64,000 nt of DNA, taken from the NCBI GenBank assembly GCA_964636885.1, contig CAZWVA010000002.1, positions 22,050 to 86,049 on the forward strand, written 5' to 3'. Below the pieces are notes generated by a model, which did not search any database, was not told the origin of the DNA, and saw only the letters and a list, made by a program, of their open reading frames with translations. Numbering within the stretch: the stretch's first letter is position 1; every line of letters starts with the position of its first letter. Source of the stretch: an uncultured Spirochaetia bacterium (GTDB lineage Bacteria > Desulfobacterota_D > UBA1144 > Nemesobacterales > CSP1-2). Both the position numbers and the translations under genes were made by a program. This document shows positions 29,670 to 46,927 of this stretch, in pieces.

Positions 29670-29711
29670 TTTCGTTTGTATGGTTTATGGGGAGAGGTAA
29701 ATGCAAGTCCG

Positions 29712-30561: not shown

Positions 30562-30590
30562 TTGACTTCATTTATTAAAGTTAATAAAAT
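30562..30590 (+). promoter_or_regulatory. Candidate sigma70-type promoter for the GNAT / AIR-synthase-like cluster.
   Basis: TTGACT, a 17-bp spacer, then TAAAAT. About 35 nt upstream of the GNAT start. Confidence 0.5.
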
Positions 30591-30623
30591 GTGAAATATA
30601 GTAGATGAAATCCTCTGCGGGGT

Positions 30624-31079
30624 GTGGGAATGTCGGAGTTTGTCTTTAAGATCGCCGAAACCGAGGAGGAATTAGAAGAGTACTTTCGTCTTCGACATGA
30701 GGTTTTTGTTAGAGAGCAGAGGATATTTCCCGAAACCGATGTGGATGAATACGACAAAGACGCCATACACATAATCGCTATAGAGGGGGCAAGCGGAAAG
30801 GTGGTGGGCGGGGTCAGGTGTTACAGGAAAGATGGGGACACCTGGTTTGGCAGTCGTCTTAGTGCTGATCCCGGTTATCGCAATGGAAGAGTCGGATCGA
30901 ATCTCGTAAGATTCGCTGTAAAAACGGTAAAGTCCAGGGGCTGTAAAACGTTCCTTGCGTATATACAGCCTCAGAACGTAAAGTTCTTCGAGAGGCTGGG
31001 CTGGAAGGCCATAGGGGATCAGGTTATATATCACGGCCTTCCCCATCAGCTTATGGAAGCCGATCTGGAATCGGGCTAA
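30624..31079 (+). CDS. GNAT N-acetyltransferase, MSMEG_0567/Sll0786 'nitrogen-starvation' family-like.
   Basis: GNAT fold. Its position directly upstream of a sll0787-type AIR-synthase-like gene supports the family call. GTG at 30624 or ATG at 30630. Confidence 0.65.
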   Translation: MGMSEFVFKIAETEEELEEYFRLRHEVFVREQRIFPETDVDEYDKDAIHIIAIEGASGKVVGGVRCYRKDGDTWFGSRLSADPGYRNGRVGSNLVRFAVKTVKSRGCKTFLAYIQPQNVKFFERLGWKAIGDQVIYHGLPHQLMEADLESG

Positions 31080-31165
31080 AGCGATGCGCCGAGGTTCCGA
31101 GTCAGGGTTTTGTTTAAGACCCTCTCTTTATGTCTTGACGTCTTAATATCTATCAGGAGAAACAG

Positions 31166-32131
31166 ATGCGAGAGCTGATTTCGGCCTTACGTTCCTCTCC
31201 CCGGTTGAATCAGAAGGGAAGGCTGAAAGAGCTATGGCGCTTACTTCCCCGCGTTTGTAAGGCTGACGGGAGCGACGTGGTTCTTGGCGACGATGCCGCT
31301 GCTATTAAGGACGGGGATGGTTATCTGCTCCTTGCCGCCGAAGGCGTCTATCATCCACTTTTAAAATCGAACCCTTACCTTGCCGGCCGTACCTCGGTTC
31401 TCACAAACGTAAACGATATATACGCTATGGGTGGAAGGCCGATAGCGATTGTGGACGTGCTTTTTGCGTCTGATTCTGAAGAGTCGGGTGAGGTGCTTCG
31501 CGGGATTAGGGATAATTCATCCCGTTACGGGGTCCCGGTGGTCGGTGGGCACTTGACCGAGGAGGCTACCTCCTCTTCCCTTTCCGTCTTCATACTGGGT
31601 AGGGCTAGGAAACTGCTCTCCGGTTTTAATGCCGAGGCGGGGGATGATCTGGTTTTTATCTCCAACCTCAATGGAAGGTTCTATCCGGGGTTTAATTTCT
31701 GGGATTCCTCTAGTGGTCTCAGCGATGGGGATGTCCTAACCCATTTGGAACTCCTTCCCCAAATAGCCGAGGAGGGGCTCGCCGATGCGGCAAGGGACGT
31801 GAGCATGGCGGGACTTATAGGCTCCACATTGATGCTCCTTGAGGGCTCTGGGAAGGGGGCTGAGATCCATATAGACAGGATTCCAGCACCCTTTGAGGTT
31901 CCCCTAAAGGAGTGGCTTCTTACGTTTCCAAGCTTTGGTTTCGTCTTATCCCTAAGACCGCAAAACACCCAAAGGGTTGAGGATAGGTTCAGACGATTGG
32001 GACTTGCATGCGAGAGGATCGGTAAGGTGACCTCTGAGCCCCTCGTGTTGTTCATCAACGATAAGGGTGAAAGGGGCCTCTTTTGGGATCTTAGCTCGGA
32101 GCCTTTAATCGGGCTTGGAGAGGTTAGGTAA
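31166..32131 (+). CDS. AIR-synthase-related (PurM-like) protein, Sll0787 family-like.
   Basis: PurM-like N-domain 'VLGDDAAAIKDGDGYLLLAAEG' and the C-domain. Confidence 0.7.
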   Translation: MRELISALRSSPRLNQKGRLKELWRLLPRVCKADGSDVVLGDDAAAIKDGDGYLLLAAEGVYHPLLKSNPYLAGRTSVLTNVNDIYAMGGRPIAIVDVLFASDSEESGEVLRGIRDNSSRYGVPVVGGHLTEEATSSSLSVFILGRARKLLSGFNAEAGDDLVFISNLNGRFYPGFNFWDSSSGLSDGDVLTHLELLPQIAEEGLADAARDVSMAGLIGSTLMLLEGSGKGAEIHIDRIPAPFEVPLKEWLLTFPSFGFVLSLRPQNTQRVEDRFRRLGLACERIGKVTSEPLVLFINDKGERGLFWDLSSEPLIGLGEVR

Positions 32132-32167
32132 ATGCAATATATATATCTGCTTCGATCGGGTGGTTAA

Positions 32168-32755
32168 ATGGCTGAAGAAAAGAACCAAGTGGATAGGATC
32201 ATCCTAAAACTGGGAGAGAAGATAAAAAGGCTTCGTATAGAAAAGGGCTGGTCCCTTCAGGATCTATCGAAAAAATCGGGTATCTCTGCAGCCGGGATCC
32301 ATAAGATCGAGTCTAACGGGATAATCCCTACCATAACCACCATGATGAAGATCGCCGATGCCTTGGGAAAAAGGGTTAGCTTCTTTATAGAGGAGGAGGG
32401 AGAAGAGGAGGATGCCGTTTTTGTTCCCGCGAAGGAGCGGGAGACGATCTTCACATTCAAGAAGGGGCTTGATCTTCAGGGTATCTCCGCAAAGAAATAC
32501 GGGGATTTCATTATGACGGCGGCTTATTCTATAGTTGATGTGGGGGCATCGAGTGGGAAAAAACCCATGGTGCATCGTGGGGAGGAATTGGTCTACTGTC
32601 TTCAGGGAAAGATGGAGTTCAAGGTGAAGGGCAAAACCTATGTCTTAAACCCTGGCGATAGCCTCCATTTTAGGACACACGTAGAGCATAGCTGGAGGAA
32701 TATAGGCGATATTCAGGCAAAACTGATATGGGTGCTCGCCGTCCCTCCATCATAA
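32168..32755 (+). CDS. XRE-family HTH transcriptional regulator with a C-terminal cupin domain.
   Basis: HTH 'LRIEKGWSLQDLSKKSGISAAGIHKIESN'. C-terminal cupin (HRGEELVYCLQGKMEFKV...HFRTHVEHSW). Confidence 0.8.
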   Translation: MAEEKNQVDRIILKLGEKIKRLRIEKGWSLQDLSKKSGISAAGIHKIESNGIIPTITTMMKIADALGKRVSFFIEEEGEEEDAVFVPAKERETIFTFKKGLDLQGISAKKYGDFIMTAAYSIVDVGASSGKKPMVHRGEELVYCLQGKMEFKVKGKTYVLNPGDSLHFRTHVEHSWRNIGDIQAKLIWVLAVPPS

Positions 32756-32785
32756 GGGATTCGTGAATGTCTACTCGGCAACCGA

Positions 32786-34111
32786 GTGGTTACGGGGTTA
32801 AGTCACATGGTATCTAGAACAAAGGGAAAGGAAGTGGGTGGCTTAGAAAGGTACTTGGGTGAGCGAATCATAAGGGCTAATCGGCTTGCCATAGAAAGGA
32901 TTCTTTCCGTTGAGCCTGTCCTTGTCGATGTGGATACCGCTCTTAACGTCATCCCAGGCATGACCCCAAATACGGTGCTTCACGCAGGCCCCCCAATAGA
33001 GTGGGAGAGGATGTGCGATCCTATGAAAAGGGCCGTTAGGGGGGCTTTGATATTTGAGGGGCTAGCGGCCGACGAAGGGGAGGCTGAAAAACTGCTTCTC
33101 ATGGATAAGGTTAAACTCTCTCCAAACCATCACCATGGTTCCGTAGGCCCAATGACTGGGGTCATTTCCCCTTCTATGCCCGTGGTTGTTACGAGGGACC
33201 CGACATTCGGCAGAACGGCCTACTCCACCTTTAATGAGGGCGGGGGAAAGGTCCTATGGTTTGGAGCCTTCGGAAAAGAAACCCTGGAGCGCCTCAGGTG
33301 GATACGGGATGTGTTTGGTCCCTTAATGAAGAAGGCGATTTCAAGAACCGGGGGGATCCCGATCTGGAATATACTGGCCCAGGGGATTCAGATGGGAGAT
33401 GAGTGTCATAACCGTCATGCGGCTTCTACGAACCTCTTCCTCAAGGGAATGGTAGAGCCCCTTTTTTCTTTGGATTCGTCGAAGGATGCCGTCCTTCAAG
33501 CCTATCGCTTTATAGCCGGAAACAGCCACTTTTTTCTTAACATCACAATGACGGCATGCAAACTCGCAATGGACGCCGCACGCTATATAGAGGACTCTAC
33601 CGTTGTGACTGCCATGTCCCGAAACGGAACAGATTTCGGGATACGTGTTAGCGGTCTTGGGGATAGCTGGTTTATAGCCCCTTCTCCCTATCTCCTTGAT
33701 GCCCTCTATAACCCGGGATACGGTCCCGACGACGGTGCGCCCGATATAGGGGATAGCTCTATTATCGAGACCATGGGGCTCGGCGGGTTTGCCATCGCCT
33801 CTGCCCCTGCCATGGCCTCATTTGCCGGAGGGGGTTTCCAGGAGGCCGTGGGTATCACGAAGCGGATGGAGCTAATAACCATCGCTAAGAATCCTAAGTT
33901 CGGAATTCCCGTTCTGGACTTTGAAGGAACCCCATTGGGGATCGATGTGCGCAGGGTCGTTGAAACGGGGATCCTCCCAAGTATAAACAGCGCTGTGATT
34001 CATAAGAGCTCGGGGGCTGGACAGATTGGAGCCGGGATTGTGAGGGCTCCCTATGAGTGCTTTAAAAAGGCCATCATGGCCTTTGGTAAGAGGTATAAGC
34101 TGGTGGCTTAA
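32786..34111 (+). CDS. DUF1116-domain protein (YlbE/AllG-like, FdrA partner subunit).
   Basis: A 441-aa protein resembling the E. coli YlbE family (conserved NHHHGSVGPMTG region). Immediately upstream of the fdrA-like gene. Confidence 0.6.
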   Translation: MVTGLSHMVSRTKGKEVGGLERYLGERIIRANRLAIERILSVEPVLVDVDTALNVIPGMTPNTVLHAGPPIEWERMCDPMKRAVRGALIFEGLAADEGEAEKLLLMDKVKLSPNHHHGSVGPMTGVISPSMPVVVTRDPTFGRTAYSTFNEGGGKVLWFGAFGKETLERLRWIRDVFGPLMKKAISRTGGIPIWNILAQGIQMGDECHNRHAASTNLFLKGMVEPLFSLDSSKDAVLQAYRFIAGNSHFFLNITMTACKLAMDAARYIEDSTVVTAMSRNGTDFGIRVSGLGDSWFIAPSPYLLDALYNPGYGPDDGAPDIGDSSIIETMGLGGFAIASAPAMASFAGGGFQEAVGITKRMELITIAKNPKFGIPVLDFEGTPLGIDVRRVVETGILPSINSAVIHKSSGAGQIGAGIVRAPYECFKKAIMAFGKRYKLVA

Positions 34112-34142
34112 TGCCACTTCGGACATTAGAAGGGGAAGGGAA

Positions 34143-35732
34143 TTGCCAGTAATAAGCACAGTCAAGAAGAACCACTACCAGGATTCCATGAAGCTCATGC
34201 AGATAAGCCAGAGGCTTAGTGCGCTTCCCGGTATAAGAAAGGCCTCGGCCATCATGGCGACAGAGGCCAATCTAAGGATGCTTAAGGAATCCGGATTAAT
34301 CGGCGAACCCCCGGACTCGGTGAGCGCAAACGATCTCATAGTGGCCATTGAGGCTGAATCCGAGAGCGCCGCAAGGGGGGCGATTGAGAGGCTGGACTCC
34401 CTCCTTACCCCTCCACGGACCGAGGTTATTGGAAAAGCGGAATATAGGAGCCTTGATTCAGCTCATTCGGCTCTTCCTCAGGCAAACCTCTTGGTGGTTT
34501 CCCTTCCCGGTCAGTACGCGAAGATCGAGGTGGCAAAGGCGATTGAGAGAGGACTCCATACGTTTCTCTTCAGCGATAACCTGACTGTGGAGGAGGAGAT
34601 AGAACTAAAGGAAAGGGCAAGGGAAAGAGGGCTTCTCGTCATGGGGCCTGGGTGCGGCACCGCGATAATAAACGGAGTAGGGCTTGGGTTTGCAAACGTT
34701 GTGAGAAGGGGACCGATCGGGGTTATTGCGGCTGCTGGAACCGGGATGCAGGAGGTTACAACCCTAATCCACAATATGGGCTCAGGGATCTCCCATGCGA
34801 TTGGACTCGGTGGGAGAGACCTATCGGAAAGGGTAGGCGGCATTATGGCGATGGAGGCGATAAGGATGCTCGAGAGGGATGAGAGCACCGAGGTTCTCCT
34901 TCTAGTTTCTAAGCCGCCTTCAGAAAGGATAGCGAAGACGGTGATTGACCTCATTCGTGATTATGGAAAACCCGCCGTCATCTGCTTTCTCGGAGAGGGG
35001 ATTCGGAGGAAAGAGGAGGGCTCAAGGATCCGTTTTTCATCCACCCTCGAGGGGGCGGCTCTTGAGGCCTTAAAATTCATAAGGGACTCTATAGGGATTC
35101 CCGATAAAAGGGGTCTTCTGGACTCCCGCTTGAGAAGGAGGGCCGAGGGGTTTATTAAATCCCTGGATCCAAAACAGCGTTACCTTCGTGGGTTGTTCTC
35201 CGGGGGTACCCTCTGCTACGAGGCCCAGCAGGTGCTTACCCCGATCTTGGGAAGGGTTTATTCAAACGCCCCCCTTCATAGAGAAAACAAGCTGGATGAT
35301 TCAAATCGGAGTAAGGGTCATACGTGTATTGACCTTGGTGAGGAAGAATTCACCGTGGGGCGTCCTCATCCTATGATGGATTCCACTCTAAGGAGCGAGA
35401 GACTCCTGAGGGAGGCGTCTTATCCGGGCACGGCCGTAATACTCTTTGACGTGGTTCTCGGATACGTGGCGAGTCCAGACCCAGCCGGTGACCTCCTCCC
35501 TGCGATTAAGGAAGCAAAAAGGATAGCGAGGAGTAAGGGACGTACCCTGGCTTTTGTGGCCCACGTCTGCGGGACGGAAGGGGACCCCCAGGGCTTAAGA
35601 TCGCAAGAAGAGAAACTTAGAAAGGCGGGGGTTTTGGTTTTTCCCACAAACGCCCTAGCCTCTAGGGTCGCAGGTTGGATTACGACAAGGGGTAAAAAGG
35701 GACTGGAGACCTTAAGGCAGGGCATACAATAG
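34143..35732 (+). CDS. fdrA: FdrA-family protein (succinyl-CoA-synthetase-like CoA-binding/ligase fold; AllF-like).
   Basis: N-terminus 'VKKNHYQDSMKLMQISQRLSALPGIRKASAIMATEANLRML' parallels E. coli FdrA. Proposed TTG start at 34143 with RBS 'gaaggggaaggg'. The ORF-track start at 34053 would overlap the upstream gene. Confidence 0.7.
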   Translation: MPVISTVKKNHYQDSMKLMQISQRLSALPGIRKASAIMATEANLRMLKESGLIGEPPDSVSANDLIVAIEAESESAARGAIERLDSLLTPPRTEVIGKAEYRSLDSAHSALPQANLLVVSLPGQYAKIEVAKAIERGLHTFLFSDNLTVEEEIELKERARERGLLVMGPGCGTAIINGVGLGFANVVRRGPIGVIAAAGTGMQEVTTLIHNMGSGISHAIGLGGRDLSERVGGIMAMEAIRMLERDESTEVLLLVSKPPSERIAKTVIDLIRDYGKPAVICFLGEGIRRKEEGSRIRFSSTLEGAALEALKFIRDSIGIPDKRGLLDSRLRRRAEGFIKSLDPKQRYLRGLFSGGTLCYEAQQVLTPILGRVYSNAPLHRENKLDDSNRSKGHTCIDLGEEEFTVGRPHPMMDSTLRSERLLREASYPGTAVILFDVVLGYVASPDPAGDLLPAIKEAKRIARSKGRTLAFVAHVCGTEGDPQGLRSQEEKLRKAGVLVFPTNALASRVAGWITTRGKKGLETLRQGIQ

Positions 35733-35751
35733 GGGTTAATGGAGAAATCGG

Positions 35752-36690
35752 ATGAAGGTGGCCGTGGTAGCGTTTGGTGGAAATGCCCTCATGGATTTTA
35801 GCGGCAAGAGCAGTTACGCCGAACAGGTGATGAAGGCCGAAAAGATGTGTAAAGAGATATTGAGTCTATTTGAACTCGGCTATGCCGTCATAATCACTCA
35901 CGGAAACGGTCCACAGGTCGGCAATCTCCTCATGCAACAGGAGTGTTTAGCTGGTTCCATTCCGCCTATGCCACTCGATGTCTGTGATGCGATGACACAG
36001 GGACAGATGGGTTATATGATAGAGCAGACGCTGAGAAACGCATTTACTAAGAATAGCATGAAGAAACCAGTCGTCTCTATCGTTACACAGGTGGTTGTTT
36101 CTGAGAACGACCCTGCCTTTAGGAATCCCACGAAGTTTATCGGCCCGTTCTTTAGTAAGGAGGAAAGCGAGTCGCTTAGGAGGGAAAGGGGATGGCAGAT
36201 GAAGGAGGATTCTGGAAGGGGTTGGAGGCGCGTTGTGCCGTCCCCAAGGCCGGTTGATATAGTTGAAAGAGACGAGATTGAGGAGATGGTAAAGAGGGAT
36301 TTTGTCGTAATAGCATGCGGGGGCGGAGGGATCCCGGTTCTTCAAGATAAGAAGGGAAGGCTTAAAGGTGTTGCCGCCGTAATCGATAAGGACTTTGCGG
36401 CCGAAAGGCTTGCAAGCCTTATAGGCGCGGAGATGCTCCTCTTAATCACATCTGTAAGTCAGGTATCCATCTTCTACGGGACCCCAAAGCAGAGGAGCAT
36501 AGAGAAGATGACGCTTAAGGAAGCCGAGAGGTATAGGGACGAAGGGCACTTTCCGCCTGGGAGTATGGGGCCCAAGATCGAAGCCGCTATTAAGTTTCTC
36601 CATTCGGGCGGCAAGAGAACGATCATAACCTCCTTAGAAAACATAAAAGCGGCGATAAGGGGGGAGGGTGGGACGGAGATAGTGCCATGA
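35752..36690 (+). CDS. arcC: Carbamate kinase.
   Basis: N-terminus 'KVAVVAFGGNALM...ITHGNGPQVGNLLM', matching the carbamate kinase signature. 312 aa. Confidence 0.85.
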   Translation: MKVAVVAFGGNALMDFSGKSSYAEQVMKAEKMCKEILSLFELGYAVIITHGNGPQVGNLLMQQECLAGSIPPMPLDVCDAMTQGQMGYMIEQTLRNAFTKNSMKKPVVSIVTQVVVSENDPAFRNPTKFIGPFFSKEESESLRRERGWQMKEDSGRGWRRVVPSPRPVDIVERDEIEEMVKRDFVVIACGGGGIPVLQDKKGRLKGVAAVIDKDFAAERLASLIGAEMLLLITSVSQVSIFYGTPKQRSIEKMTLKEAERYRDEGHFPPGSMGPKIEAAIKFLHSGGKRTIITSLENIKAAIRGEGGTEIVP

Positions 36691-36969
36691 TTAAAATGCG
36701 CGTAGAAAAGAGACAGGTGTTTGTTTCCGGTGCTTCGTGCTTAGGTATTAAGCATGAGTCATATGGGATTTCAAAAAAAATCGCTCTTTTTTATGTCTTA
36801 GGAGGGTCTTTGGATTGGTATGTTCTTTGCAAACGGGATATGAGGGAAGCGAAATGAAGGAATCGAAAGGCGGTGATTTAATAGATTGCTCTTTATTTGT
36901 TTTTATATTAAGATGGAGGATGCTAAAGCCCGGATTAAGAAATCCCATATAAAAGGAGGTGAAAGAGAG

Positions 36970-37815
36970 ATGAAGATAAATAGAAAGGTGTTTGATGCCC
37001 ATAGCCATATAGGCGAACTCCCCGCATACAGGTTCTATGACCTCAAGGAACCCGTAAAGCCGACGGTGATTGAGTATCCATCTTCAAAGGAATATCTGAA
37101 GCACATGGATGAATACGGTGTGGACAGGGCGATGGTCATATCCAATTACGGGGTTCCCGATTCGGGACAGCCGTTTACCCTAAACCCACTTGTAATCGAT
37201 AGCGTCCACAAGGCGGACAGACTCGTTGGCGCCATCTGGGTTTCTGGTATGGCAAAGGATAAAGAGCGAACGGAGGAGGCGCTAAGGCACGTAAAGGAAA
37301 AGGGGATAGTGGCATTAAAGGCTACGTGTCTCCTTGGAGGGACCTATAAGCCCAGCGAGTGGGACGAGACGACAAGGGGGATATGGGAGGGCATAGTGAA
37401 GGCGGCTGAGGAGAATAACCTCGTTCTACATATTCACACAAGCCCAGGAGGCGGTTCCGATGTGGGAAACGCATTCGAGTTTGTGAAGGAATATGGAAAA
37501 CGGATTAAGATCCATATAGTTCATATGGGAGGGGGTGTTAGTGGTCATATAAGGCTCGTTCCCAGGTTCATAGAACTCATTCAAGACGGTTATCAGGTCT
37601 ATACGGATACCACATGGGCTATCGGTTTTGGTTCTAGATGGTTGCTCTATGAGATTGAACGTACTGGTATAGGCACGGATAACGTGCTCTTTGCCTCTGA
37701 TACGCCCTGGGGGGATTTTCCGTCTGAGTACTGGAAGGTTGAGGGGGCAAAGATCTCGGAGGAGTTAAAGAACAAGATCTTCTGGGAAAACGCCCAGAGG
37801 CTTTATTCCAGATAG
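36970..37815 (+). CDS. Amidohydrolase-2 family (TIM-barrel metal-dependent hydrolase).
   Basis: N-terminal 'FDAHSHI' metal-binding motif with later His/Asp residues (HIHTSPGG; FASDTPW). RBS 'aaaaggaggtg' before the ATG at 36970. The ORF track opens at 36886. Confidence 0.7.
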   Translation: MKINRKVFDAHSHIGELPAYRFYDLKEPVKPTVIEYPSSKEYLKHMDEYGVDRAMVISNYGVPDSGQPFTLNPLVIDSVHKADRLVGAIWVSGMAKDKERTEEALRHVKEKGIVALKATCLLGGTYKPSEWDETTRGIWEGIVKAAEENNLVLHIHTSPGGGSDVGNAFEFVKEYGKRIKIHIVHMGGGVSGHIRLVPRFIELIQDGYQVYTDTTWAIGFGSRWLLYEIERTGIGTDNVLFASDTPWGDFPSEYWKVEGAKISEELKNKIFWENAQRLYSR

Positions 37816-37842
37816 AAATCCAAAGAAAGGAGGTAATAAAAG

Positions 37843-38334
37843 ATGGCGGTAGATAGGGTAAAAGGAGAGAGACCACAGAAGGGAAAGGCGATTGTCAATT
37901 ATGAGGAGAAGTTATTTCCCGATTATAAAGCGAATCCGGGAGAAAAGGCTCTATTCCTCGTCCACACGGTCCCGTATGAGGGCTCTGTGGCAGGTATAAA
38001 TATGCTTACGGCTATAAGGTGTAAGAGGAAGGGCTATGATACGAGCGTTCTTTTCTACGGCCCAGCCTCGGCCATACCTGTATACAGGGGCTGGCCCAAT
38101 ATAGGAGACGACGCATATGGCGCCGGGATACAGCTCTACCCCAATCTCGTTGAGAGGATGCTAAAGGAGGGAATAAAGGTCTATGCATGTCGCTTTTCAG
38201 CTGCCTGCCTTATAGGTGTGAGGGAAGAAGACATGCTGGAGGGTGTGACACCAATACATCCTACTGATATTCTAGATATAGTGATCGAACACCATAGGGC
38301 CGGTGCAATGATATTTAGTACGTGGACTGTGTAG
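37843..38334 (+). CDS. DsrE/DsrF-like protein, or MSMEG_0572/Sll0783 nitrogen-starvation family-like protein.
   Basis: 163 aa. Rossmann-like fold 'KALFLVHTVPYEGSVAGINMLTAIRCKRKGYDTSVLFYGPAS'. The family call rests on size and context and is tentative. Confidence 0.4.
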   Translation: MAVDRVKGERPQKGKAIVNYEEKLFPDYKANPGEKALFLVHTVPYEGSVAGINMLTAIRCKRKGYDTSVLFYGPASAIPVYRGWPNIGDDAYGAGIQLYPNLVERMLKEGIKVYACRFSAACLIGVREEDMLEGVTPIHPTDILDIVIEHHRAGAMIFSTWTV

Positions 38335-38440
38335 TACTTAAGGATTAGTTTAGATTAACTCCCTGTGGTCTAAAGAAACGGACCGCTTGGTTTAGAGCTG
38401 TCACTGGGATTTCGGATGTACCGATTGCGGTCTTGCGATT

Positions 38441-39619
38441 GTGGGTTTTGACCGGATCTTGGGGATCCGAGATCAGAAGGAGGGGATTATGGATTCAAGG
38501 ACCCTAAAAGTAGAGTTACAGAGTTATGGGCTTAGGATTCCCGATACGAGGGGCATAAGGAGGGGTGGAGCAGGACCTACGGGTGGGATCCATATCAAGA
38601 TCCTTCCCGACAGTGAGGGGAACGTGCCTGTTGTAGGCGATTTCGTTGATTCCTCTCCGTATTATCTGGACCGGATAAACGGTGAATACTGGGTTTTTAA
38701 AAACGACGTTGCCGTAGCTCAGGTAGAGCTCATGGGGGTGGCGAGGTTCTACGACTATAAGACCTCATCCGGGATACCGATGCAAAGGGTCGGACTCCTC
38801 CACTGCCCGACTACATTTGCCACAACGCTCCTTCAAACCTGCGATTTCTGGGAGGACGAGAGGCGTTGCAAGTTTTGCGGGATCGAACTCACGCTTAAGG
38901 ATAGGAGTACAGTAGGATTTAAGAACGCAAAGAGCCTGGTTGAGACCATACTCTGTGCAAAGGAACTAGATGGGATTACGAATATAGTTTTTACCTCCGG
39001 GGTTGCCAAGGACGAGGAAAAGGCACTCTCAAAATACGCCGAGATATGTTCGGAGGTGAAGAGATCGACCGATCTACCGATACAGCTTCAGATAATTCCA
39101 CCCGGGGACCTATCATGGCTTAAGAGGCTGAGGGATGCCGGTGTAGATGCCCTCGGTGTTCACATCGAAACCTTCGATCCAGACGTGTTTGAAAAGATAA
39201 CCCCTGGAAAGGCGAGGATCGGGTTTAATAGGTACGTTGAGACGTGGAAGGAGGCCGTGAACGTCTTTGGGAGGTGGCAGGTTAGTACATACGTGCTTGT
39301 TGGACTCGGGGAGAGACTAGAGACGATAATAGAGGGAACGGCCCTCTGCGCCGACATAGGGGTTTATCCGTTCATCGTTCCGTTTCGACCGATTGCGGGA
39401 ACGCCTATGGAGAATGTAAGGCCACCCGATCCCAAGGTGATGGAGTATGTCTATACAGAGGCCGCAAAGGTGCTTTCAAGGTATGATGGGGGCTCAAAGA
39501 GCAGTAAGGCGGGGTGTGTAAGCTGTGGTGAGTGCTCTGCGCTCCCCGATTTTGAAAGGGCTTTAAATCCCGGTGGGGTGGGATTTAAAAGGTTTGTAAA
39601 ACCGACTAACGTGATCTGA
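38441..39619 (+). CDS. Radical SAM protein with a non-canonical Cys motif (MSMEG_0568 family-like).
   Basis: Cys cluster 'HCPTTFATTLLQTCDFWEDERRCKFCG' (C-x8-C-x2-C rather than CxxxCxxC). TIM-barrel-like rSAM core (GITNIVFTSG; VLVGLGE). C-terminal CxxC. Confidence 0.65.
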   Translation: MGFDRILGIRDQKEGIMDSRTLKVELQSYGLRIPDTRGIRRGGAGPTGGIHIKILPDSEGNVPVVGDFVDSSPYYLDRINGEYWVFKNDVAVAQVELMGVARFYDYKTSSGIPMQRVGLLHCPTTFATTLLQTCDFWEDERRCKFCGIELTLKDRSTVGFKNAKSLVETILCAKELDGITNIVFTSGVAKDEEKALSKYAEICSEVKRSTDLPIQLQIIPPGDLSWLKRLRDAGVDALGVHIETFDPDVFEKITPGKARIGFNRYVETWKEAVNVFGRWQVSTYVLVGLGERLETIIEGTALCADIGVYPFIVPFRPIAGTPMENVRPPDPKVMEYVYTEAAKVLSRYDGGSKSSKAGCVSCGECSALPDFERALNPGGVGFKRFVKPTNVI

Positions 39620-39658
39620 TCTTTTTGGATTTGTATAAATGACTCCCTTCTTCCTCTC

Positions 39659-41071
39659 GTGGAAGTCGGAGGAGGTCTAAGAGGTGATGGTAAGATGACT
39701 CAAAACGATCTACGTATCATCGTGGTAGGAGGGGGTGCTGCTGGGATCTCAGCAGCATCCACGGCAAGGTCCGTAGCCCCTCAGGCCTCGGTTATCCTTT
39801 TTACCGAGTTTGAAGATGTGGCATATAGCCCCTGTGGTATTCCATTCGTTCATGGAAGGGAGATCCCTGATTTTAAGAGCCTTTTTCTTCAAACCCCTGA
39901 GCACTATGCCGAGATCGGAATAGACCTCAGGCTCCAAACAACCGTTACCGGGATAGATCTCGAAAAGCGTACTGTAAGTGTTGGCTCCCAGGTATTTCCC
40001 TGGGACCGTCTTGTTATCGCTACCGGATTCGAGTATGAAAAGCCTGCCATTCCGGGTGTAGACCTAGAGGGGCTTTACTATGTAAAAAACATCCGCCGCG
40101 CAATGGAGTTTGACAAGATACTCGATCAGGTAAAGAGGGTCGTCGTTGTATCGGCAACGCCACTGGGGATCGAGATGACTGGAAACCTCGCCCAGAGGGG
40201 GCTTGAGACGCACCTTGTGGATGAAGGCCCTTGGCTTATGTCAGAGGTTGCCGACCCGGACATAATGCAACCCGTGCAGAAGTCTCTCGAGGAACTTGGG
40301 GCAAGGATCTATCTGGGGACAAAGGTGCTTGAGTTTAAGGGGGAAAACGGAAGGGTAAGATCCATCAGCACCACGGCTGGGGACATAGAATGCGATGTGG
40401 TTGTTATCGCTACTCATAAGAAGCCGAATAACCGTCTTTCCCGCGAGGCGGGGCTAAAGATAGGGGCAACGGGTGGGATAATAGTGGACGACCATATGAG
40501 AACCTCTATGAAGGATGTTTATGCGGCCGGTGACTGCATAGAGGTCATTCACGGTGTGACCGATCTTCCCATTCAGGGGCTTTCCGGGAGTCACGCCTAC
40601 TCTCAGGGAAGGGTGGCGGGGGCCAACGCCGCGGGCGATGACCGGGCCTATGACCCGGTATATGTCCCTTGGGGAATGGTAGGGGGAAGGGTCCAGATCG
40701 GTGGGGTTTCTCTTGGAGAAACCCTGCATAAGGCCCTGGGGATACCACATATAGTAGCCGCCGCGCAGGGGATTTCGAGGGCGAGGTACTATCCTGGGGT
40801 AAGCAGGATCCTAGTAAAACTCATCGCCGACCCGAAAACGCTTCGCGTGATGGGTGCTCAAATGGCGGGTGGCGAGGGGATTAAAGAGAGGGCCGATTTT
40901 CTCGCATTTGCCATAAAGCGCGGGGCTACTCTCGAAGACTTTGCCTGGATGGAAAACGTCTATTCTCCTCCGATCGGGGCATTGATGGAGCCGATTGCCC
41001 TTGCGGCACAGGCTGGATTGGCTGAATTGAAGAAGCGAGGAGCCGAACCCCCCAAATTCGCTGGTGCATGA
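39659..41071 (+). CDS. FAD-dependent pyridine nucleotide-disulfide oxidoreductase (MSMEG_0569 family-like).
   Basis: Dinucleotide-binding motif 'IVVGGGAAGISAAS', a second Rossmann motif (VVVVSATPLGIEM), and 'AAGDCIEV'. Confidence 0.75.
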   Translation: MEVGGGLRGDGKMTQNDLRIIVVGGGAAGISAASTARSVAPQASVILFTEFEDVAYSPCGIPFVHGREIPDFKSLFLQTPEHYAEIGIDLRLQTTVTGIDLEKRTVSVGSQVFPWDRLVIATGFEYEKPAIPGVDLEGLYYVKNIRRAMEFDKILDQVKRVVVVSATPLGIEMTGNLAQRGLETHLVDEGPWLMSEVADPDIMQPVQKSLEELGARIYLGTKVLEFKGENGRVRSISTTAGDIECDVVVIATHKKPNNRLSREAGLKIGATGGIIVDDHMRTSMKDVYAAGDCIEVIHGVTDLPIQGLSGSHAYSQGRVAGANAAGDDRAYDPVYVPWGMVGGRVQIGGVSLGETLHKALGIPHIVAAAQGISRARYYPGVSRILVKLIADPKTLRVMGAQMAGGEGIKERADFLAFAIKRGATLEDFAWMENVYSPPIGALMEPIALAAQAGLAELKKRGAEPPKFAGA

Positions 41072-41085
41072 AAAGGGAAGGCTAA

Positions 41086-41349
41086 ATGTCAGAGAAAAGA
41101 TCATTCGGTGAGTGGTTGAGAAAAAACGCCGAAAAATACCTGCTCGAAGCCGCCGCAGATGAGATGGCAGTCCGTTACCCTGGTCTCTGTGTGAAACCCT
41201 ACAGAGAAAGGGGAATCGTCCCCTTCTTCTGGAGGAGCGTCTTTGTCCCCATTTATTCAAGGATCCCCTGGAGCATCCGCAAGAAGGTGATCCTTTTTAG
41301 CTCCTATCCCACTGGGGAACGCCCCCAGTGGAAGAGGCGGAGTTACTAA
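41086..41349 (+). CDS. Small 87-aa protein, MSMEG_0570 family-like.
   Basis: Size and position (after the flavin oxidoreductase and before the glycosyltransferase) match the small conserved member of the nitrogen-starvation cluster. Confidence 0.45.
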   Translation: MSEKRSFGEWLRKNAEKYLLEAAADEMAVRYPGLCVKPYRERGIVPFFWRSVFVPIYSRIPWSIRKKVILFSSYPTGERPQWKRRSY

Positions 41350-41394
41350 GACACGGGCCTGATTCTGGGATCTAGGGTATCTCCCCTGCCCTCT

Positions 41395-42417
41395 TTGGTT
41401 GTTGGATTTCTTGATATGCTAGTTGTCGCTGAGGCCATAGGTTACAAGGCACTAAAGGCGCTAAGAGGTTCCGGAGGAACGGCCAGGGTGTATAGCGCTT
41501 TTGATCACGCCCTTTATATAAGACCCCGCAGGGGTTCCCTTATAAGTGTGATTAGAGACAGGGACTACATAGGCCCAGCCTCAATATTGCTCAGGGAATC
41601 CAGTTATATGGATTTTAAGTCAATGGGTATTAATGAGGGGACGAGAATAGAGGTTAGAAATGATAGACTGGTCTTTCAGGGTAGTGTACTCACGATTGAG
41701 ATGGGTAGCCCCTCTATCTGGTTCCCTCCTCCCATTCCTCGGCGAAGCGAACTCGTGGGATTGGGGAGCATGAGCCTAAACCTCAGGGTCCTTAGGGATA
41801 TGATATACACCGCCCCGAGCCGGGAAGGGCTGGTTCCGCTCTTAGAGAACGTTGAGCTATACGGGCCCCTTCAGATCTTTCTTAAACCGCAAAAGCCCAC
41901 GCTTTCTGAGAGGACAAGACCCTATATAGAAACGCTCATGTGGGGGCTTTTTTGGGGCGATATCGATGCGATTATAAGTAACGCCCTACAGATACTCGGA
42001 CTCGGCCCTGGGCTTACCCCCTCATGCGATGATTTTCTAACGGGTTTAATCCTCGGTTTAGTCATAGGCGGGAAGGTGCTTCTAAGGGAGAGAAGGAAGG
42101 AGCTTGTTTTTTACAGAAGGGTTTCTTCCGAGATATGCCGGGCGGCGAAGGGTAAAACGACCATATACAGTGAGATCCTTCTAAACCAAGCCCGCCGTGG
42201 CGAAGGGCCTCATGCCCTAATCGGACTCATCCACGCCCTTCTCACAGGGGGACCGGATAGGGTTGCGAGCTTATCAAAGACCGTAATAGCCATGGGAGAG
42301 ACCTCTGGGGCGGATATTTCAATCGGGGTCTACTATGGAATCCGGTTTTTGGTTTCTAGACTAGAAAGGATGGAGGATCTACTCAGTTTAATGGATAGTC
42401 CAGATGGAATCGCTTAA
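41395..42417 (+). CDS. Hypothetical 340-aa protein. It may be a DUF2877 (YlbF/AllH-like) third subunit for FdrA/DUF1116, but this is speculative.
   Basis: TTG start. Soluble protein. The N-terminal region 'SAFDHALYIRPRRGSLISVIRDRDYIGPASILL' is reminiscent of YlbF-family proteins. Overlaps the glycosyltransferase gene by 14 nt. Confidence 0.35.
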   Translation: MVVGFLDMLVVAEAIGYKALKALRGSGGTARVYSAFDHALYIRPRRGSLISVIRDRDYIGPASILLRESSYMDFKSMGINEGTRIEVRNDRLVFQGSVLTIEMGSPSIWFPPPIPRRSELVGLGSMSLNLRVLRDMIYTAPSREGLVPLLENVELYGPLQIFLKPQKPTLSERTRPYIETLMWGLFWGDIDAIISNALQILGLGPGLTPSCDDFLTGLILGLVIGGKVLLRERRKELVFYRRVSSEICRAAKGKTTIYSEILLNQARRGEGPHALIGLIHALLTGGPDRVASLSKTVIAMGETSGADISIGVYYGIRFLVSRLERMEDLLSLMDSPDGIA

Positions 42418-43591
42418 AATCGCACTCCTTACCTATTCGACGAAGCCGAGAGGAGGCGTGGTCCATACCCTAAACCTGGCCGAGAGGTTGGTTCTTCTCA
42501 ATCACAGGGTTCATATATACGCCCTTAGTGGAGGGGAGGGCTTTTTTAGGCCAGTGGGCGTTCCGCATACTCTCATTCCTTGCCCGGTGGTAGCCGGTGA
42601 GGACATCGACGATAAGGTGAGAAGATATATCCGTATCTACTCCGAGTACATGGCTTCTATAAGGGAGGACTACGATATTTACCACGCACAGGACTGTATA
42701 TCCGCAAACGCCCTATTCGAGATCAGGAGTCGCGGTTTAATCAGGTTCTTTGTAAGAACCGTTCATCATATAGACGATTTCACATCTGAGTCCCTTATTG
42801 ACTGTCAGTTAAGAAGCATCGTAGAGCCCGATTACCTGATTGTTGTCAGTAGGTTTTGGGAGAGAGAACTCCGCTCCCGTTATTCCCTGAACTCCACCCT
42901 CATATATAACGGGGTGGATCTAGAGAGGTTTAGGGCAAACGAGAAGGCCTCAAAAGAAGAGGCAAAGGGGGATTTCTCTCTTAAAGGGTACAATGTGATG
43001 CTTAGTATAGGGGGGATCGAGCCTCGGAAAAACGCTCTTACCGCGCTCAGGGCGTTTGGTATCGCAAGCCGGTATTTTAAGGCAAGGGGTAAGCGCCTTG
43101 TGTGGTTGATAGGAGGAGGGGAGACGCTCTTTGATTACAGGGCCTATAGGGAAGGGTTCTTTTCCGAGATAAAAGAGCTCGGACTAAGAGTCGGTGAGGA
43201 TATAATCGTACTTGGAGCCGTTCCTGAGGACTCAATGGTTAAGCTCTACAGGGCAGCGGACGTCTTTGTCTTCCCCTCTATTAAAGAGGGATGGGGACTC
43301 GTCGTGCTTGAGGCCATGGCATCTGGGCTTCCCGTAATCGCCTCTGGTATAGAGCCTATGACGGATTACCTGATGGACGGGGAGAACGCCCTTTTGGTTT
43401 CCCCTATGGACCATGAGGGCTTGGCCGAAAGGATTATAGGTATCTTAGAGGAAGCCGGGCTTCGTGATAAACTGATTAGAAACGGAATGAAGACGGTCGA
43501 ATCCTATAGCTGGCAAAAGACCGCTTTAAAGCACTCGGAGTTTTATAGGGGAATTCTGGAGGGTATCGGACGGATTAAAGAGCGAACTTGA
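42404..43591 (+). CDS. Glycosyltransferase family 4/GT1 (MSMEG_0565 family-like).
   Basis: GT-B fold. C-terminal 'FVFPSIKEGWGLVVLEAMASGLPVIAS' EX7E motif. Confidence 0.8.
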   Translation: MESLKIALLTYSTKPRGGVVHTLNLAERLVLLNHRVHIYALSGGEGFFRPVGVPHTLIPCPVVAGEDIDDKVRRYIRIYSEYMASIREDYDIYHAQDCISANALFEIRSRGLIRFFVRTVHHIDDFTSESLIDCQLRSIVEPDYLIVVSRFWERELRSRYSLNSTLIYNGVDLERFRANEKASKEEAKGDFSLKGYNVMLSIGGIEPRKNALTALRAFGIASRYFKARGKRLVWLIGGGETLFDYRAYREGFFSEIKELGLRVGEDIIVLGAVPEDSMVKLYRAADVFVFPSIKEGWGLVVLEAMASGLPVIASGIEPMTDYLMDGENALLVSPMDHEGLAERIIGILEEAGLRDKLIRNGMKTVESYSWQKTALKHSEFYRGILEGIGRIKERT

Positions 43592-44066
43592 GATCTAACG
43601 CAAGTGGGATCCTCTGATACCTGGTTTGCCCAAAACAAGACCCGTATTCCGATTGAGTGACATAAGGGTTGCCTGACCACGCCTTGCATACCGCTTCGTC
43701 AGTATGTGATGACCTTACATACCGAAGAATGACGAGCTTTGATGTGGAGTGAGTTTTCTTATGGACGAGATTGTTGAACGACAAAAGGACGTTGAGACTA
43801 GTCAATGAAATATCTTGTGAAAGGTTAGACAGCAGCAGGTGATGGGATTGTTGTAGTCGCCAAAAAAGCCCTAGCGAAACCGGTTTCATCACCGTATGCC
43901 GTTTATAGCAAAGATCGGTTTCAGAAAAAGGAGGTCTTAAAAGTCTTGGCTACTGTTGCTTATTCCTGCCTTTAATCCGTATCGATACAAAAAGACGCTC
44001 GGTTTAAAGTCCGGGCCAGGGGTTAAAGGTGAGTTCTTTTGGTGAGATGGTATAATCAAGATACAG

Positions 44067-45842
44067 ATGAAAAAGAGGAATTTCTCAGATCTTCAGGATT
44101 TCATCGGGTATCTTGAGGCGATAGGGGATCTAAAGAGGATAAAGGCAGAGGTCGACCCCATACTCGAAATCACTGAGATCTCATCAAGGGTGATTAAGGA
44201 AAAGGGTCCGGCACTCCTATTTGAGAACGTAAGGGGCTCCTCATATCCCCTTGCGATTAACCTCTTTGGAACCGAGGAGCGGATGGAGCTTGCCCTTGGT
44301 AGGAAACCGAAAGAGGTGGGAGAAGAGTTGGTTTTCCTATTTGAAAAACTGAATCCCCCTTCTCTGATGTCCTTCTTTTCTATACTCCCCAGGGTATTTG
44401 GGTTCCTCTCCATGAGGACTAAGGATGTGAGAAGCGGGGTGGTTCAAGAGGTAGAGGAGGAGCCAGACCTGGACAGGCTACCCATAATAAAATGCTGGCC
44501 TAAGGATGGCGGCAGGTTCATAACGCTTGGTCTCGTTCTAACCCAGGACCCGGTTACGAGGAGAAGAAACCTTGGGCTCTACAGGATGCAGGTATATGAC
44601 AAGAGGACGACGGGTATGCACTGGCATCCACATAAGGGTGGTGCGGCTCATTACCACGAGGCAGCGAAGCTCGGGATCGACCTTGAGGCCGCAGTCGTTC
44701 TCGGAGGAGACCCAAAGATGATCTTCACAGCCGTTGCCCCGCTTCCCGAAGGCATGGACGAGATCGCCTTCGCGAGCTACCTCCGCGGGAGCCCTATCCC
44801 GATGGTTCGGGGAAAGAGCGTATCCCTTAGTGTCCCTGCAAACGCAGAGTTTGTGATAGAAGGCGTCGTTCCCCAGGGTGAGATAAGGCGTGAGGGTCCA
44901 TTTGGAGACCACTTTGGGCACTACTCGATGGAGGCCGATTTTCCGGTCTTTAGGGTGAGTGAGATAACACACAGGAATAACCCAATTTATCCGGCAACGG
45001 TGGTGGGGAAGCCCCCAAAGGAGGATTTATTCCTTGGGATCGCGGCGGCCGAGATGTTCTCCCCGCTTATAAGGATCATACAACCGGAGGTAAAGGGGAT
45101 GTGGGCATATCCGGAGGCCGGGTTCCACAACCTCCTTGTCGTCTCTGTTGACGAGAGGTATCCAAAGAACGGGATAAAGGCCATGCTCGCCCTCTGGGGT
45201 ACTGGACAGCTTCTCCTTACAAAGTGCATGATAACGGTCTCAAGCGATGTGAACCCGAGGGATTTTAGCGCCGTTCTTAGGGAGATAGGGGAGAACTTTG
45301 ATCCCAGGGAGGACTTTCTCCTCATTCCCTGGGCCCCATTAGATACGCTGGACTTTACGAGCGGGAAGCTGAACGTGGGAAGCAAGATGGGGATTAACGC
45401 CGTAAGGCGCCTAAACGGTTCGGGCAGAAAGCGGGAGGTTCCAAAGAGCGTTCCAGACCCGAGGGAGAAGATAGGAGAGGTTCTAGACCACAGGCTTCTT
45501 CCAGGGGGTTTCCTTGTCTTAAAGGTTAGGAAGAATCCTAAGGACACGATCCGTAGGGTTTTCGATTTGCCGGGATATGGAGACATAAGGATCGTTGCCG
45601 TCGTAAGCCCGGATATTGACATACACGATGACACGGAGCTAATATGGGGTATATTTACGAGGTTTGATCCATATCTCGACGTCGTATTCGAGGAGACGGA
45701 ACTCCGCGGCTCTGCTGTCGTTTACGGTGGGAGGATGGGGATAGATGCCTCTTTTAAGGAGTGGTATCCTGAGGTAATCGAGATGTCGGAAGACGTAAAA
45801 GGGAAGGTGAGAGAGAGATGGAAGGAGTACTGGAGAGAATAG
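44067..45842 (+). CDS. UbiD-family decarboxylase (prenylated-FMN dependent), likely menaquinone/futalosine-pathway associated.
   Basis: 591 aa with the UbiD N-terminus (DLQDFIGYLEAIGDLKRIKAEVDP...LLFENVRGS) and the conserved decarboxylase core. Confidence 0.8.
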   Translation: MKKRNFSDLQDFIGYLEAIGDLKRIKAEVDPILEITEISSRVIKEKGPALLFENVRGSSYPLAINLFGTEERMELALGRKPKEVGEELVFLFEKLNPPSLMSFFSILPRVFGFLSMRTKDVRSGVVQEVEEEPDLDRLPIIKCWPKDGGRFITLGLVLTQDPVTRRRNLGLYRMQVYDKRTTGMHWHPHKGGAAHYHEAAKLGIDLEAAVVLGGDPKMIFTAVAPLPEGMDEIAFASYLRGSPIPMVRGKSVSLSVPANAEFVIEGVVPQGEIRREGPFGDHFGHYSMEADFPVFRVSEITHRNNPIYPATVVGKPPKEDLFLGIAAAEMFSPLIRIIQPEVKGMWAYPEAGFHNLLVVSVDERYPKNGIKAMLALWGTGQLLLTKCMITVSSDVNPRDFSAVLREIGENFDPREDFLLIPWAPLDTLDFTSGKLNVGSKMGINAVRRLNGSGRKREVPKSVPDPREKIGEVLDHRLLPGGFLVLKVRKNPKDTIRRVFDLPGYGDIRIVAVVSPDIDIHDDTELIWGIFTRFDPYLDVVFEETELRGSAVVYGGRMGIDASFKEWYPEVIEMSEDVKGKVRERWKEYWRE

Positions 45843-46927
45843 AGACCCTTTGCAGGGACAGATCCCTTTTAGGGATACTCAAGAAGGTCGAAAGGGGCGA
45901 GAGGATAACCTTTGAAGACGGGCTAAGGATCCTTGAGACCCATGACCTAAACACGGTTGGTATGATGGCCGATTACGTGAAGAGGAAGAGGGAAGGGGAT
46001 AGGGTCTACTTTGTCGTAAATCGCCATGTGAATCCGACAAATATATGCGCTATATCGTGCAAATTCTGTGCCTTCGGGGTGACAAAGAGGTCTCCCGATG
46101 CCTATGAATTAACCCATGAGCAGATACTCTCCATGCTAAGCGAAGAGATAAGGGAGGTTCACATAGTGGGTGGGCTTCATCCAAACTGGGGATTTGATCA
46201 TTATCTGGGCATCGTGAGGCTTATTAAAGAAGCCTACCCAAAGACACACGTAAAGGCGTTTACCGCTGTTGAAGTGGACTGGTTTACGGAGATAAGCGGA
46301 AAGAGCGTAGAAGAGGTACTTCTAGACCTAAAGGAAGCCGGGGTGGATGCACTTACGGGAGGTGGTGCGGAGATCCTTCATCCGGACGTAAGGAAAAAGA
46401 TATGCGCTCCTAAAACGGTTGCAACGAGATGGGAGGAGATACACAAGCTCGCTCACAGGCTAGGCATACCGACAAACGCCACCATTCTCTACGGACACAT
46501 AGAGGAGCCATTTCATGTGGTTGACCATCTTGAAAGGCTAAGAAGGATAGAGGACGAATCGCCGGGGTTCTTTGCGTTCATTCCGGTACTCTTTCAGCCT
46601 GAAAATACAGGGCTCAAGAAACAGGTAAAGTTCGTTCCGGCCTCTTATGATCTAAAGGTGCACGCCCTTGCACGTCTCTATCTCGATAACTTCCCCCACA
46701 TAAAGGCCTACTGGATAACACTCGGCGAAAAACTAGCACAGGTCGCCCTCCACTACGGGGCAAGCGATGCAGATGGAACGATAATGAGGGAAAAAATAAT
46801 CCACGATGCCGGGGCACCGTCCGAGGTCGGCCATAGCAGGGATTTTATGGTCAATATGATAAAGAACGCCGGATACACCCCCGTTGAAAGGGACGCCCTT
46901 TACAATGTGGTCAGGGTTTATTCGTAG
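45818..46927 (+). CDS. Radical SAM enzyme of the MqnC/MqnE family (futalosine pathway).
   Basis: Motif 'CAISCKFCAFG' (CxxxCxxC, MqnC/MqnE-type). 369 aa. A 25-nt overlap with the UbiD gene. Confidence 0.75.
   Translation: MEGVLERIETLCRDRSLLGILKKVERGERITFEDGLRILETHDLNTVGMMADYVKRKREGDRVYFVVNRHVNPTNICAISCKFCAFGVTKRSPDAYELTHEQILSMLSEEIREVHIVGGLHPNWGFDHYLGIVRLIKEAYPKTHVKAFTAVEVDWFTEISGKSVEEVLLDLKEAGVDALTGGGAEILHPDVRKKICAPKTVATRWEEIHKLAHRLGIPTNATILYGHIEEPFHVVDHLERLRRIEDESPGFFAFIPVLFQPENTGLKKQVKFVPASYDLKVHALARLYLDNFPHIKAYWITLGEKLAQVALHYGASDADGTIMREKIIHDAGAPSEVGHSRDFMVNMIKNAGYTPVERDALYNVVRVYS

Follow-up and report, generated by a model that had tools for sequence, protein, structure and literature searches.

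Nitrogen starvation strongly induces operons of the Nit1C (or gpr) type, and growth on cyanide or nitriles as well as resistance to peroxide depends on them. In Mycobacterium smegmatis the gpr cluster is induced more than 500-fold on nitrogen starvation and confers resistance to peroxide (PMC6039565), in Pseudomonas the Nit1C nitrilase is required for growth on cyanide (PMC7815647), and in Synechocystis the cluster affects redox balance and the accumulation of polyhydroxybutyrate (PMC3901256). The canonical gene order, verified in a Rhizobium locus, is MSMEG_0572 - nitrilase - radical S-adenosylmethionine (SAM) protein - GNAT - AIRS (AIR-synthase-like protein) - glycosyltransferase - MSMEG_0570 - MSMEG_0569. 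The subject of this analysis is a radical SAM gene of this type (the MSMEG_0568/NitD family) in a stretch of 64,000 nucleotides from an uncultured bacterium (contig CAZWVA010000002.1, positions 22,050 to 86,049; hereafter the window), the product of which carries a C-x8-C-x2-C motif and which is part of an operon that has carbamoyl-handling genes in place of the nitrilase.

Two other groups of described systems are relevant here. In QueE the radical SAM motif is CX14CX2C, and the crystal structure shows a canonical cluster site in which a single loop is extended, while HmdB has the motif CX5CX2C (PMC4389238). In Escherichia coli, the oxamic transcarbamylase AllFGH converts oxalurate to oxamate and carbamoyl phosphate, after which the partner carbamate kinase AllK/YbcF turns carbamoyl phosphate into ATP, NH3 and CO2 (PMC11326118, PMC9843812).

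The radical SAM gene and its two cysteine triads

The reading frame at 38441..39619 (+) was confirmed, and its translation holds HCPTTFATTLLQTCDFWEDERRCKFCG exactly. The original prediction had taken this frame from its GTG at 38441; the frame is real, but the GTG is a mechanical start and the true start is probably the ATG at 38489, because a Shine-Dalgarno sequence lies 5 nt upstream of it and because the identical 376-aa database protein (P0001), as well as nearly all relatives, begins with MDS. Residues are therefore numbered from the Met at ATG 38489 unless GTG is stated, with C118, C127 and C130 as the cluster triad. The features of the gene are as follows.

38477..38483, + strand: Shine-Dalgarno sequence AAGGAGG, read from the sequence
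38489..39619, + strand: radical SAM gene, MSMEG_0568/NitD family, 376 aa, ATG to TGA, matching TIGR04043, NF045502 and PF04055
38489..38803, + strand: N-terminal β-rich family-specific domain, residues 1-105, with the near-invariant R24-x-GGAGP30
38804..38806, + strand: the 'HC' cysteine C106 (C122 from GTG), lineage-specific
38813..38884, + strand: β1 and cluster loop TFATTLLQT-C118-DFWEDERR-C127-KF-C130-GI, proposed radical SAM [4Fe-4S] site, Cys codons at 38840, 38867 and 38876
38987..39001, + strand: β2 end VFTSG171, counterpart of the SAM-amino-binding 'GGE' motif, aligning with ThiH 'ILTGES'
39296..39313, + strand: β5 motif LVGLGE275, counterpart of GxIxGxxE, aligning with BioB 'IIGMGET'
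39509..39538, + strand: AG-C343-VS-C346-GE-C349-S triad (AGCVSCGECS), proposed auxiliary Fe-S site, Cys at 39515-39535

The assignment to the MSMEG_0568 family, already made in the original prediction, is borne out by TIGR04043 (337.3 bits against a curated cut-off of 303.7), the match covering residues 25-372 (GTG numbering), i.e. profile positions 2-354 of 354. In addition, NF045502, which NCBI names 'variant_rSAM', scores 187 bits (cut-off 125), and Pfam PF04055 (Radical_SAM) 45.0 bits over residues 141-296 (GTG numbering), against a gathering threshold of 29.5. By these profiles the gene product is a genuine radical SAM enzyme of the curated but uncharacterised MSMEG_0568/NitD family. Membership of LipA, LipS2, BioB, HmdB, PylB or ThiH was considered and rejected, as the NCBIfam scores are far under the cut-offs (LipS2, the best match outside the own family, 59.9 vs 270; LipA 19.6 vs 310; BioB 21.4 vs 225). 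The family is large, with 3858 database homologues at E ≤ 1e-5 (archaeal ones included) and 1789 proteins at E ≤ 1e-3 when the representatives of 50%-identity clusters are searched exhaustively. The closest tier, at 75-91% identity, consists of proteins from metagenome-assembled genomes (MAGs) of Dadabacteria and Thermodesulfobacteriota that are already annotated as TIGR04043, and a second tier, at ~44% identity, includes fusions of the radical SAM protein to GNAT.

Conservation was counted in a set of 112 near-full-length representatives (from clustering at 50% identity) that reaches down to ~27% identity to the query, and genomic context was surveyed by tblastn in the best 80 of at least 583 loci with relatives (archaeal MAGs included); the collection in which these loci lie has a single genome for each species. 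The cysteines of the translation fall at 122, 134, 143, 146, 172, 203, 303, 359, 362 and 365 (from GTG), and the C-x8-C-x2-C spacing of the original prediction is exact, with the eight residues DFWEDERR between C134 and C143 (GTG numbering). The absence of a canonical CxxxCxxC, likewise claimed, also held on re-translation of the gene frame; the one such string in the six frames of 38301-39700 sits in another forward-strand frame than the gene. C118, C127 and C130 are Cys in 109, 109 and 108 of the 112 representatives, respectively, and the motif QxC-x8/9-CxΦC is present in all 80 genome loci, with F129, the aromatic residue of CxΦC, kept in 91% of the representatives and the first cysteine (Cys1) always preceded by the conserved strand context TT[VL]xQxC. 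Judged by this alignment, the conservation of the triad is far beyond chance, and C-x8-C-x2-C is a conserved trait of the family and not an oddity of a single gene.

The spacing between Cys1 and Cys2 is x8 in 84 representatives, x9 in 11, x7 in six, x5 in three, and x6 and x12 in one each (in 2 of the 112, an extra Cys makes a CxxxCxxC while the QxC stays), and that between Cys2 and Cys3 is nearly always xx. Because the CxΦC is fixed while the spacing that precedes it varies from 5 to 12, it seems that a loop has been inserted at an otherwise canonical site. An internal control for the position of Cys1 is provided by MqnE, encoded further downstream in the window (45818-46927, TIGR03700) and with a canonical CxxxCxxC. 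When the family profile is aligned with it by hhalign (95% probability), C118 falls on Cys1 of MqnE (N-I-C-AIS-C-KF-C) and a 5-residue gap is opened in MqnE between Cys1 and Cys2. HMMER alignments place the family's RCkFCG onto the last two cysteines of the ThiH and BioB structures, and 'lTTG' and 'vGlGE' onto the SAM-binding motifs of the same two proteins. C106 was considered as a cluster ligand and rejected, since 79 of the 112 representatives have Gly at this position and only 4 have Cys; in 51 of the 112, a Cys stands three residues further downstream.

The spacing is thus indeed atypical, but 'unusual 4Fe-4S site', as it was called in the original prediction, is too strong a wording, since Cys1 is canonically placed and only a 5-residue loop is inserted. 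No confirmation was obtained either that such spacing has been reported for the MSMEG_0568 family: the sole trace is the name 'variant_rSAM' of NF045502, and literature searches for a CX8CX2C-type motif returned only unrelated papers on plant DUF26 and on NUBP1. The stretched motif itself is no discovery, being a hallmark of the curated family, and lengthened Cys1-Cys2 loops are known from QueE and HmdB.

The AlphaFold2 model of the protein (made with an 88-sequence alignment) has a mean predicted local distance difference test score (pLDDT) of 94.2 and a predicted template modelling score of 0.91. Its barrel has a regular (βα)6 pattern, in which β1 (109-113) is followed by the Cys-bearing coil (114-133, pLDDT 91-97 there), while G171 lies just past β2 (165-169), E227 shortly past β4 (221-223), and G272 and E275 just past β5 (265-271). 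Of these SAM-motif residues, G171 is conserved in 99%, E227 in 92% and G272 in 98% of the representatives. The elements of a radical SAM core, i.e. a partial or full triosephosphate isomerase (TIM) barrel with GGE-like and GxIxGxxE motifs, are all present. In fold, the protein comes closest to lipoyl synthases and biotin synthases, at 13-17% identity; neither the N-terminal domain nor the C-terminal tail has a match in Pfam or NCBIfam.

According to the proposed mechanism, C118, C127 and C130 would ligate a [4Fe-4S] cluster on the loop after β1 of a partial (βα)6 TIM barrel, with Cys1 in its canonical place at the end of β1, Cys2-x-Phe-Cys3 as the canonical CxΦC, and the five inserted residues as the sole departure. 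SAM would be bound to the unique iron of this cluster and held by TSG171 (GGE-like), E227 and GLGE275 (GxIxGxxE), and its reductive cleavage would yield a 5'-deoxyadenosyl radical that abstracts hydrogen from the substrate. Support for the proposed cluster site is positional and evolutionary.

Absent from the original prediction is the C-terminal triad, in which C343, C346 and C349 are kept in 102, 102 and 91 of the 112 representatives, and which returns as GCxxCxxC in 79 of the 80 genome loci. The C-terminal tail is well ordered in the AlphaFold2 model (pLDDT 94-95 at the triad). LipA, BioB and HydG, the closest structural relatives, carry auxiliary clusters. Given this analogy and the conservation of the triad, C343-x2-C346-x2-C349 most likely binds an auxiliary Fe-S cluster.

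Operon content and the distribution of operon types

The radical SAM gene belongs to an operon of twelve genes on the + strand (30624-43591), the order of which is the same in a relative with 84% identity. Its other genes are listed below.

30624..31079, + strand: MSMEG_0567/Sll0786-family GNAT N-acetyltransferase, first gene of the operon (TIGR04045 157 bits, cut-off 68)
31166..32131, + strand: sll0787-family AIR-synthase-like protein of the PurM superfamily (TIGR04049 353 bits, cut-off 321)
32168..32755, + strand: transcriptional regulator with HTH_3 and cupin domains (Pfam HTH_3, Cupin_2)
32786-34111, + strand: AllG-like protein, related to an oxamic transcarbamylase subunit (PF06545 278 bits)
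34053-35732, + strand: FdrA/AllF-like protein, related to an oxamic transcarbamylase subunit (NF004760 474 bits)
35752..36690, + strand: carbamate kinase (TIGR00746 408 bits, cut-off 358)
36886..37815, + strand: Amidohydro_2 metal-dependent hydrolase (PF04909 61 bits)
37843..38334, + strand: MSMEG_0572/Sll0783 (NitB) DsrE-like protein (TIGR04044 183 bits, cut-off 110)
39659..41071, + strand: pyridine-nucleotide-disulfide oxidoreductase resembling CoA-disulfide reductase (CoADR) (PF07992 171 bits; TIGR03385 277 bits, under its cut-off of 579)
41086..41349, + strand: conserved open reading frame (ORF) of 87 aa, between the flavoprotein and the AllH-like protein
41395..42417, + strand: AllH-like protein (PF11392 72 bits, weak)
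42404..43591, + strand: MSMEG_0565-family GT4 glycosyltransferase, last gene of the operon (TIGR04047 397 bits, cut-off 260)

The four partners of the canonical neighbourhood (GNAT, AIRS-like protein, MSMEG_0572 and the MSMEG_0565 glycosyltransferase) are all present, each over its curated cut-off, and with the radical SAM protein this gives the Nit1C core of NitB, NitD, NitE and NitF (TIGR04044, TIGR04043, TIGR04045 and TIGR04049). The nitrilase NitC is not: TIGR04048 has no match among the twelve operon ORFs, and tblastn with the verified Rhizobium NitC found nothing in 28001-46000 of the window. Verified probes for NitG (MSMEG_0570, TIGR04042) and NitH (the flavoprotein MSMEG_0569, TIGR04046) were also without a match in the window, the operon having another flavoprotein (CoADR-like) and another small ORF, and no sigma-54 activator, as expected for the sigma-54-dependent NitA, was present among the ORFs scanned between 24 and 52 kb, the HTH_3 and cupin protein being the only regulator of the operon. 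An Rfam scan of the operon returned no riboswitch or other RNA element. Of the less conserved genes, the 87-aa ORF has no Pfam or NCBIfam match and recurs in 17 of the 80 loci, mostly (not always) those that also have the CoADR-like flavoprotein, and the AllH-like proteins share 43-61% identity even among close relatives. At the position of the 87-aa ORF, three relatives (L001-L003) have a second amino-acid-kinase gene that the window does not have.

In the 80 loci, GNAT neighbours the radical SAM gene in 66 and AIRS in 58. A Nit6803-type nitrilase together with MSMEG_0569 and MSMEG_0570 is found in 22-23 loci (cyanobacteria, proteobacteria, Bacteroidota and Verrucomicrobiota), and AllG, FdrA and carbamate kinase in ~26, usually with Amidohydro_2 (the clade of the window, many Actinomycetota, some Bacillota and Neomarinimicrobiota); co-occurrence of Amidohydro_2 with AllG/FdrA/carbamate kinase was counted in 28. 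The remaining loci have GNAT and AIRS only (Desulfobacterota) or lack a detected partner altogether (for the most part archaea). No locus has both the nitrilase and the AllG/FdrA/carbamate kinase set, and such mutually exclusive nitrilase and carbamoyl-phosphate back-ends constrain the possible pathway intermediate. Loop length follows context as well, being x9 in 22 of 22 loci of the nitrilase type, x8 in 26 of 27 with AllF/AllG and carbamate kinase, and x8 in 26 of 26 others, and the extra upstream Cys is present in none of the 22 nitrilase-type loci. The window protein is, in these terms, a divergent x8-type member of the family in a nitrilase-less operon, a form that is found in MAGs of the Dadabacteria/Thermodesulfobacteriota type, in many Actinomycetota, and in some Bacillota and Neomarinimicrobiota. 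As a side observation, Nit1C genes are stated to be absent from Archaea (PMC7815647), while the radical SAM family itself was found in archaeal MAGs.

The radical SAM enzyme would act with the GNAT acyltransferase and the PurM-like ATP-dependent enzyme, to which it is joined as a fusion protein in some genomes, and the operon is one of the nitrogen-starvation Nit1C/gpr type, in which AllF/G/H-like proteins, carbamate kinase and an amidohydrolase stand in for the nitrilase in this lineage. This replacement suggests that ammonia is released here from a carbamoyl or ureido intermediate, as opposed to nitrile hydrolysis in the canonical type. A further step, which we put forward only tentatively, is that the operon stands for a second, hitherto undescribed version of the nitrogen-starvation pathway of Nit1C/gpr, in which the core stays the same (a two-cluster stretched-loop radical SAM enzyme, GNAT, a PurM-like enzyme, a single-Cys DsrE-like protein and a glycosyltransferase) and the nitrilase back-end gives way to a carbamoyltransferase like AllFGH, carbamate kinase and amidohydrolase, with new radical SAM chemistry, possibly sulfur-dependent, on a nitrogen-rich metabolite. 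If true, the product of the core would bear a nitrile in the canonical version but a carbamoyl or ureido group in that of the window.

Other features of the window were noted in passing. Directly downstream of the operon, at 44067-46927 (+), lie menaquinone genes of the futalosine pathway (a UbiD-family decarboxylase, TIGR03701, and MqnE, TIGR03700). A fluoride riboswitch is present at 16721-16792 (-) (Rfam RF01734; 57 bits, with the gathering score at 34). Two tRNA genes, at 21875-21945 (-) and 29597-29669 (-), a β-class carbonic anhydrase at 47752-48408 (+) and a GGDEF-EAL protein at 50227-52059 (+) appear unrelated to the radical SAM gene.

Cluster content, chemistry and alternative explanations

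Taken as a whole, the favoured explanation, i.e. a radical SAM site at the stretched loop, an auxiliary site at the C-terminal triad and the operon context described above, is held with high confidence. Several points weigh against it or limit its reach. The auxiliary site is not universal, as the third Cys of the C-terminal triad is Asn in 6 representatives and the triad is missing in ~10%, and only three Cys are conserved there, with no fourth ligand identified. Searches of the PDB and the literature turned up no family member that has been purified or structurally solved (the best PDB sequence match is ThiH, at 25 bits, and searches on MSMEG_0568, TIGR04043 and sll0785 found no biochemical work), which leaves the cluster content, the cleavage of SAM and the substrate as matters of inference. 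Finally, the TIGR04043 pass is marginal, just over the cut-off where the canonical Rhizobium member reaches 612 bits, and the window protein may not share the substrate of canonical NitD.

The points concerning the C-terminal triad bear directly on a first alternative, namely that the enzyme has a single cluster and that the C-terminal CxxCxxC serves as a structural metal site (e.g. for Zn), forms disulfides, or assists the radical SAM cluster as a fourth ligand or an electron-transfer contact. The lack of a fourth conserved ligand, the Asn at the third position and the representatives without the triad all fit such a role, as does the lack of an auxiliary cluster in PylB and ThiH, both close structural neighbours; with the conservation of the triad and the auxiliary clusters of LipA, BioB and HydG set against this, a single-cluster enzyme is considered rather unlikely. 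It could also be that the longer loop alters the chemistry itself, i.e. that SAM is used in a non-canonical way (3-amino-3-carboxypropyl transfer, as in Dph2 and ArsL) or is not cleaved at all. The label 'variant_rSAM' of the matching NCBI model, the weak Pfam matches of the partner GNAT to the FeeM and Acetyltransf_5 families, and the existence of non-canonical radical SAM enzymes with unusual chemistry (PMC4389238; bioRxiv 10.1101/2024.02.01.577332) point in this direction. However, conservation extends to every canonical SAM-binding motif and to the aromatic residue of CxΦC, Cys1 is in its canonical position, and QueE, with a still longer loop of x14, performs normal 5'-deoxyadenosyl radical chemistry at a canonical site (PMC4389238), which makes altered chemistry highly improbable.

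The remaining alternatives accept both clusters and concern what the enzyme would do with them. The auxiliary cluster could be the source or acceptor of sulfur in a sulfur-inserting or sulfur-mobilising enzyme comparable to LipA and BioB, in which case the DsrE-like protein and the CoADR-like flavoprotein could supply or repair the cluster as a thiol/persulfide relay. Lipoyl and biotin synthases are indeed the best fold matches and LipS2 is the best NCBIfam match outside the family, all 45 loci counted have exactly one invariant Cys (C116) in the MSMEG_0572 DsrE-like protein, and the redox Cys59 of CoADR/Npx (YSPCGIP) is retained by the flavoprotein in 15 of 15. Moreover, in six archaeal loci (L026, L035, L050, L053, L057 and L067), which have no detectable GNAT or AIRS partner, a sulfur-incorporation (homocysteine-biosynthesis) gene of the HcyBio type with a CBS domain stands immediately upstream of the radical SAM gene, abutting or overlapping it, and in one locus MoaE follows downstream. 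All of this is circumstantial, though: the archaeal loci with this synteny belong to a single closely related lineage, the Pfam DsrE match is weak (E 7.6e-4, below cut-off), the same branch of the fold holds PylB, ThiH and HydE, which do no sulfur chemistry, and the phenotypes described in print relate to nitrogen starvation, to NADPH balance and to the use of nitriles and cyanide, not to sulfur (PMC6039565, PMC3901256, PMC7815647). A role in sulfur insertion is therefore regarded as unlikely. A lyase acting on an amino acid, as in HydG, ThiH or NosL, where the radical of an amino acid or amine breaks down to a small C-N fragment (imine, nitrile or cyanide) that is handled at the C-terminal cluster, would explain both the nitrilase linkage of the canonical clusters and the carbamoyl-handling enzymes of the present one, and is nonetheless given only a slim chance.

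The interest lies not in the spacing of the motif but in a large family for which no biochemistry was found in the literature, and in the dichotomy of its operon types. Handles for characterisation are the six conserved Cys in two triads, the GGAGP N-terminal domain without known fold, and the x8 and x9 subtypes that track the type of operon.

Comparison with known systems

The window protein resembles the MSMEG_0568/NitD/Sll0785 proteins in its RxGGAGP N-terminal domain, its QxC...CxFC loop and its C-terminal GCxxCxxC, but is distant from the Rhizobium NitD-type member (~40% identity, 337 vs 612 bits), and differs from the nitrilase-linked members in having an x8 instead of an x9 loop and an extra Cys at 106. 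With QueE and HmdB it shares the retained Cys2-x2-Cys3 and the addition of residues between Cys1 and Cys2. LipA and BioB have CxxxCxxC where the window protein has the x8 loop, their auxiliary cysteines are arranged differently (an N-terminal CX4CX5C in LipA and scattered in BioB, as opposed to the C-terminal CxxCxxC), and neither has a counterpart of the N-terminal domain.

On the level of the operon, the genes for GNAT, the sll0787-type AIRS-like protein, MSMEG_0572/Sll0783 and the MSMEG_0565 glycosyltransferase are shared with canonical Nit1C, whereas AllF/G/H-like proteins, carbamate kinase, Amidohydro_2 and the CoADR-like flavoprotein stand in place of the nitrilase, MSMEG_0570 and MSMEG_0569. 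With the anaerobic allantoin pathway of E. coli (AllFGH and AllK/YbcF) it has in common proteins of the FdrA/AllF, AllG and AllH families and a carbamate kinase; unlike in E. coli, however, these genes are set inside an operon of the Nit1C type, and none of the window ORFs scanned belongs to the allantoin pathway.

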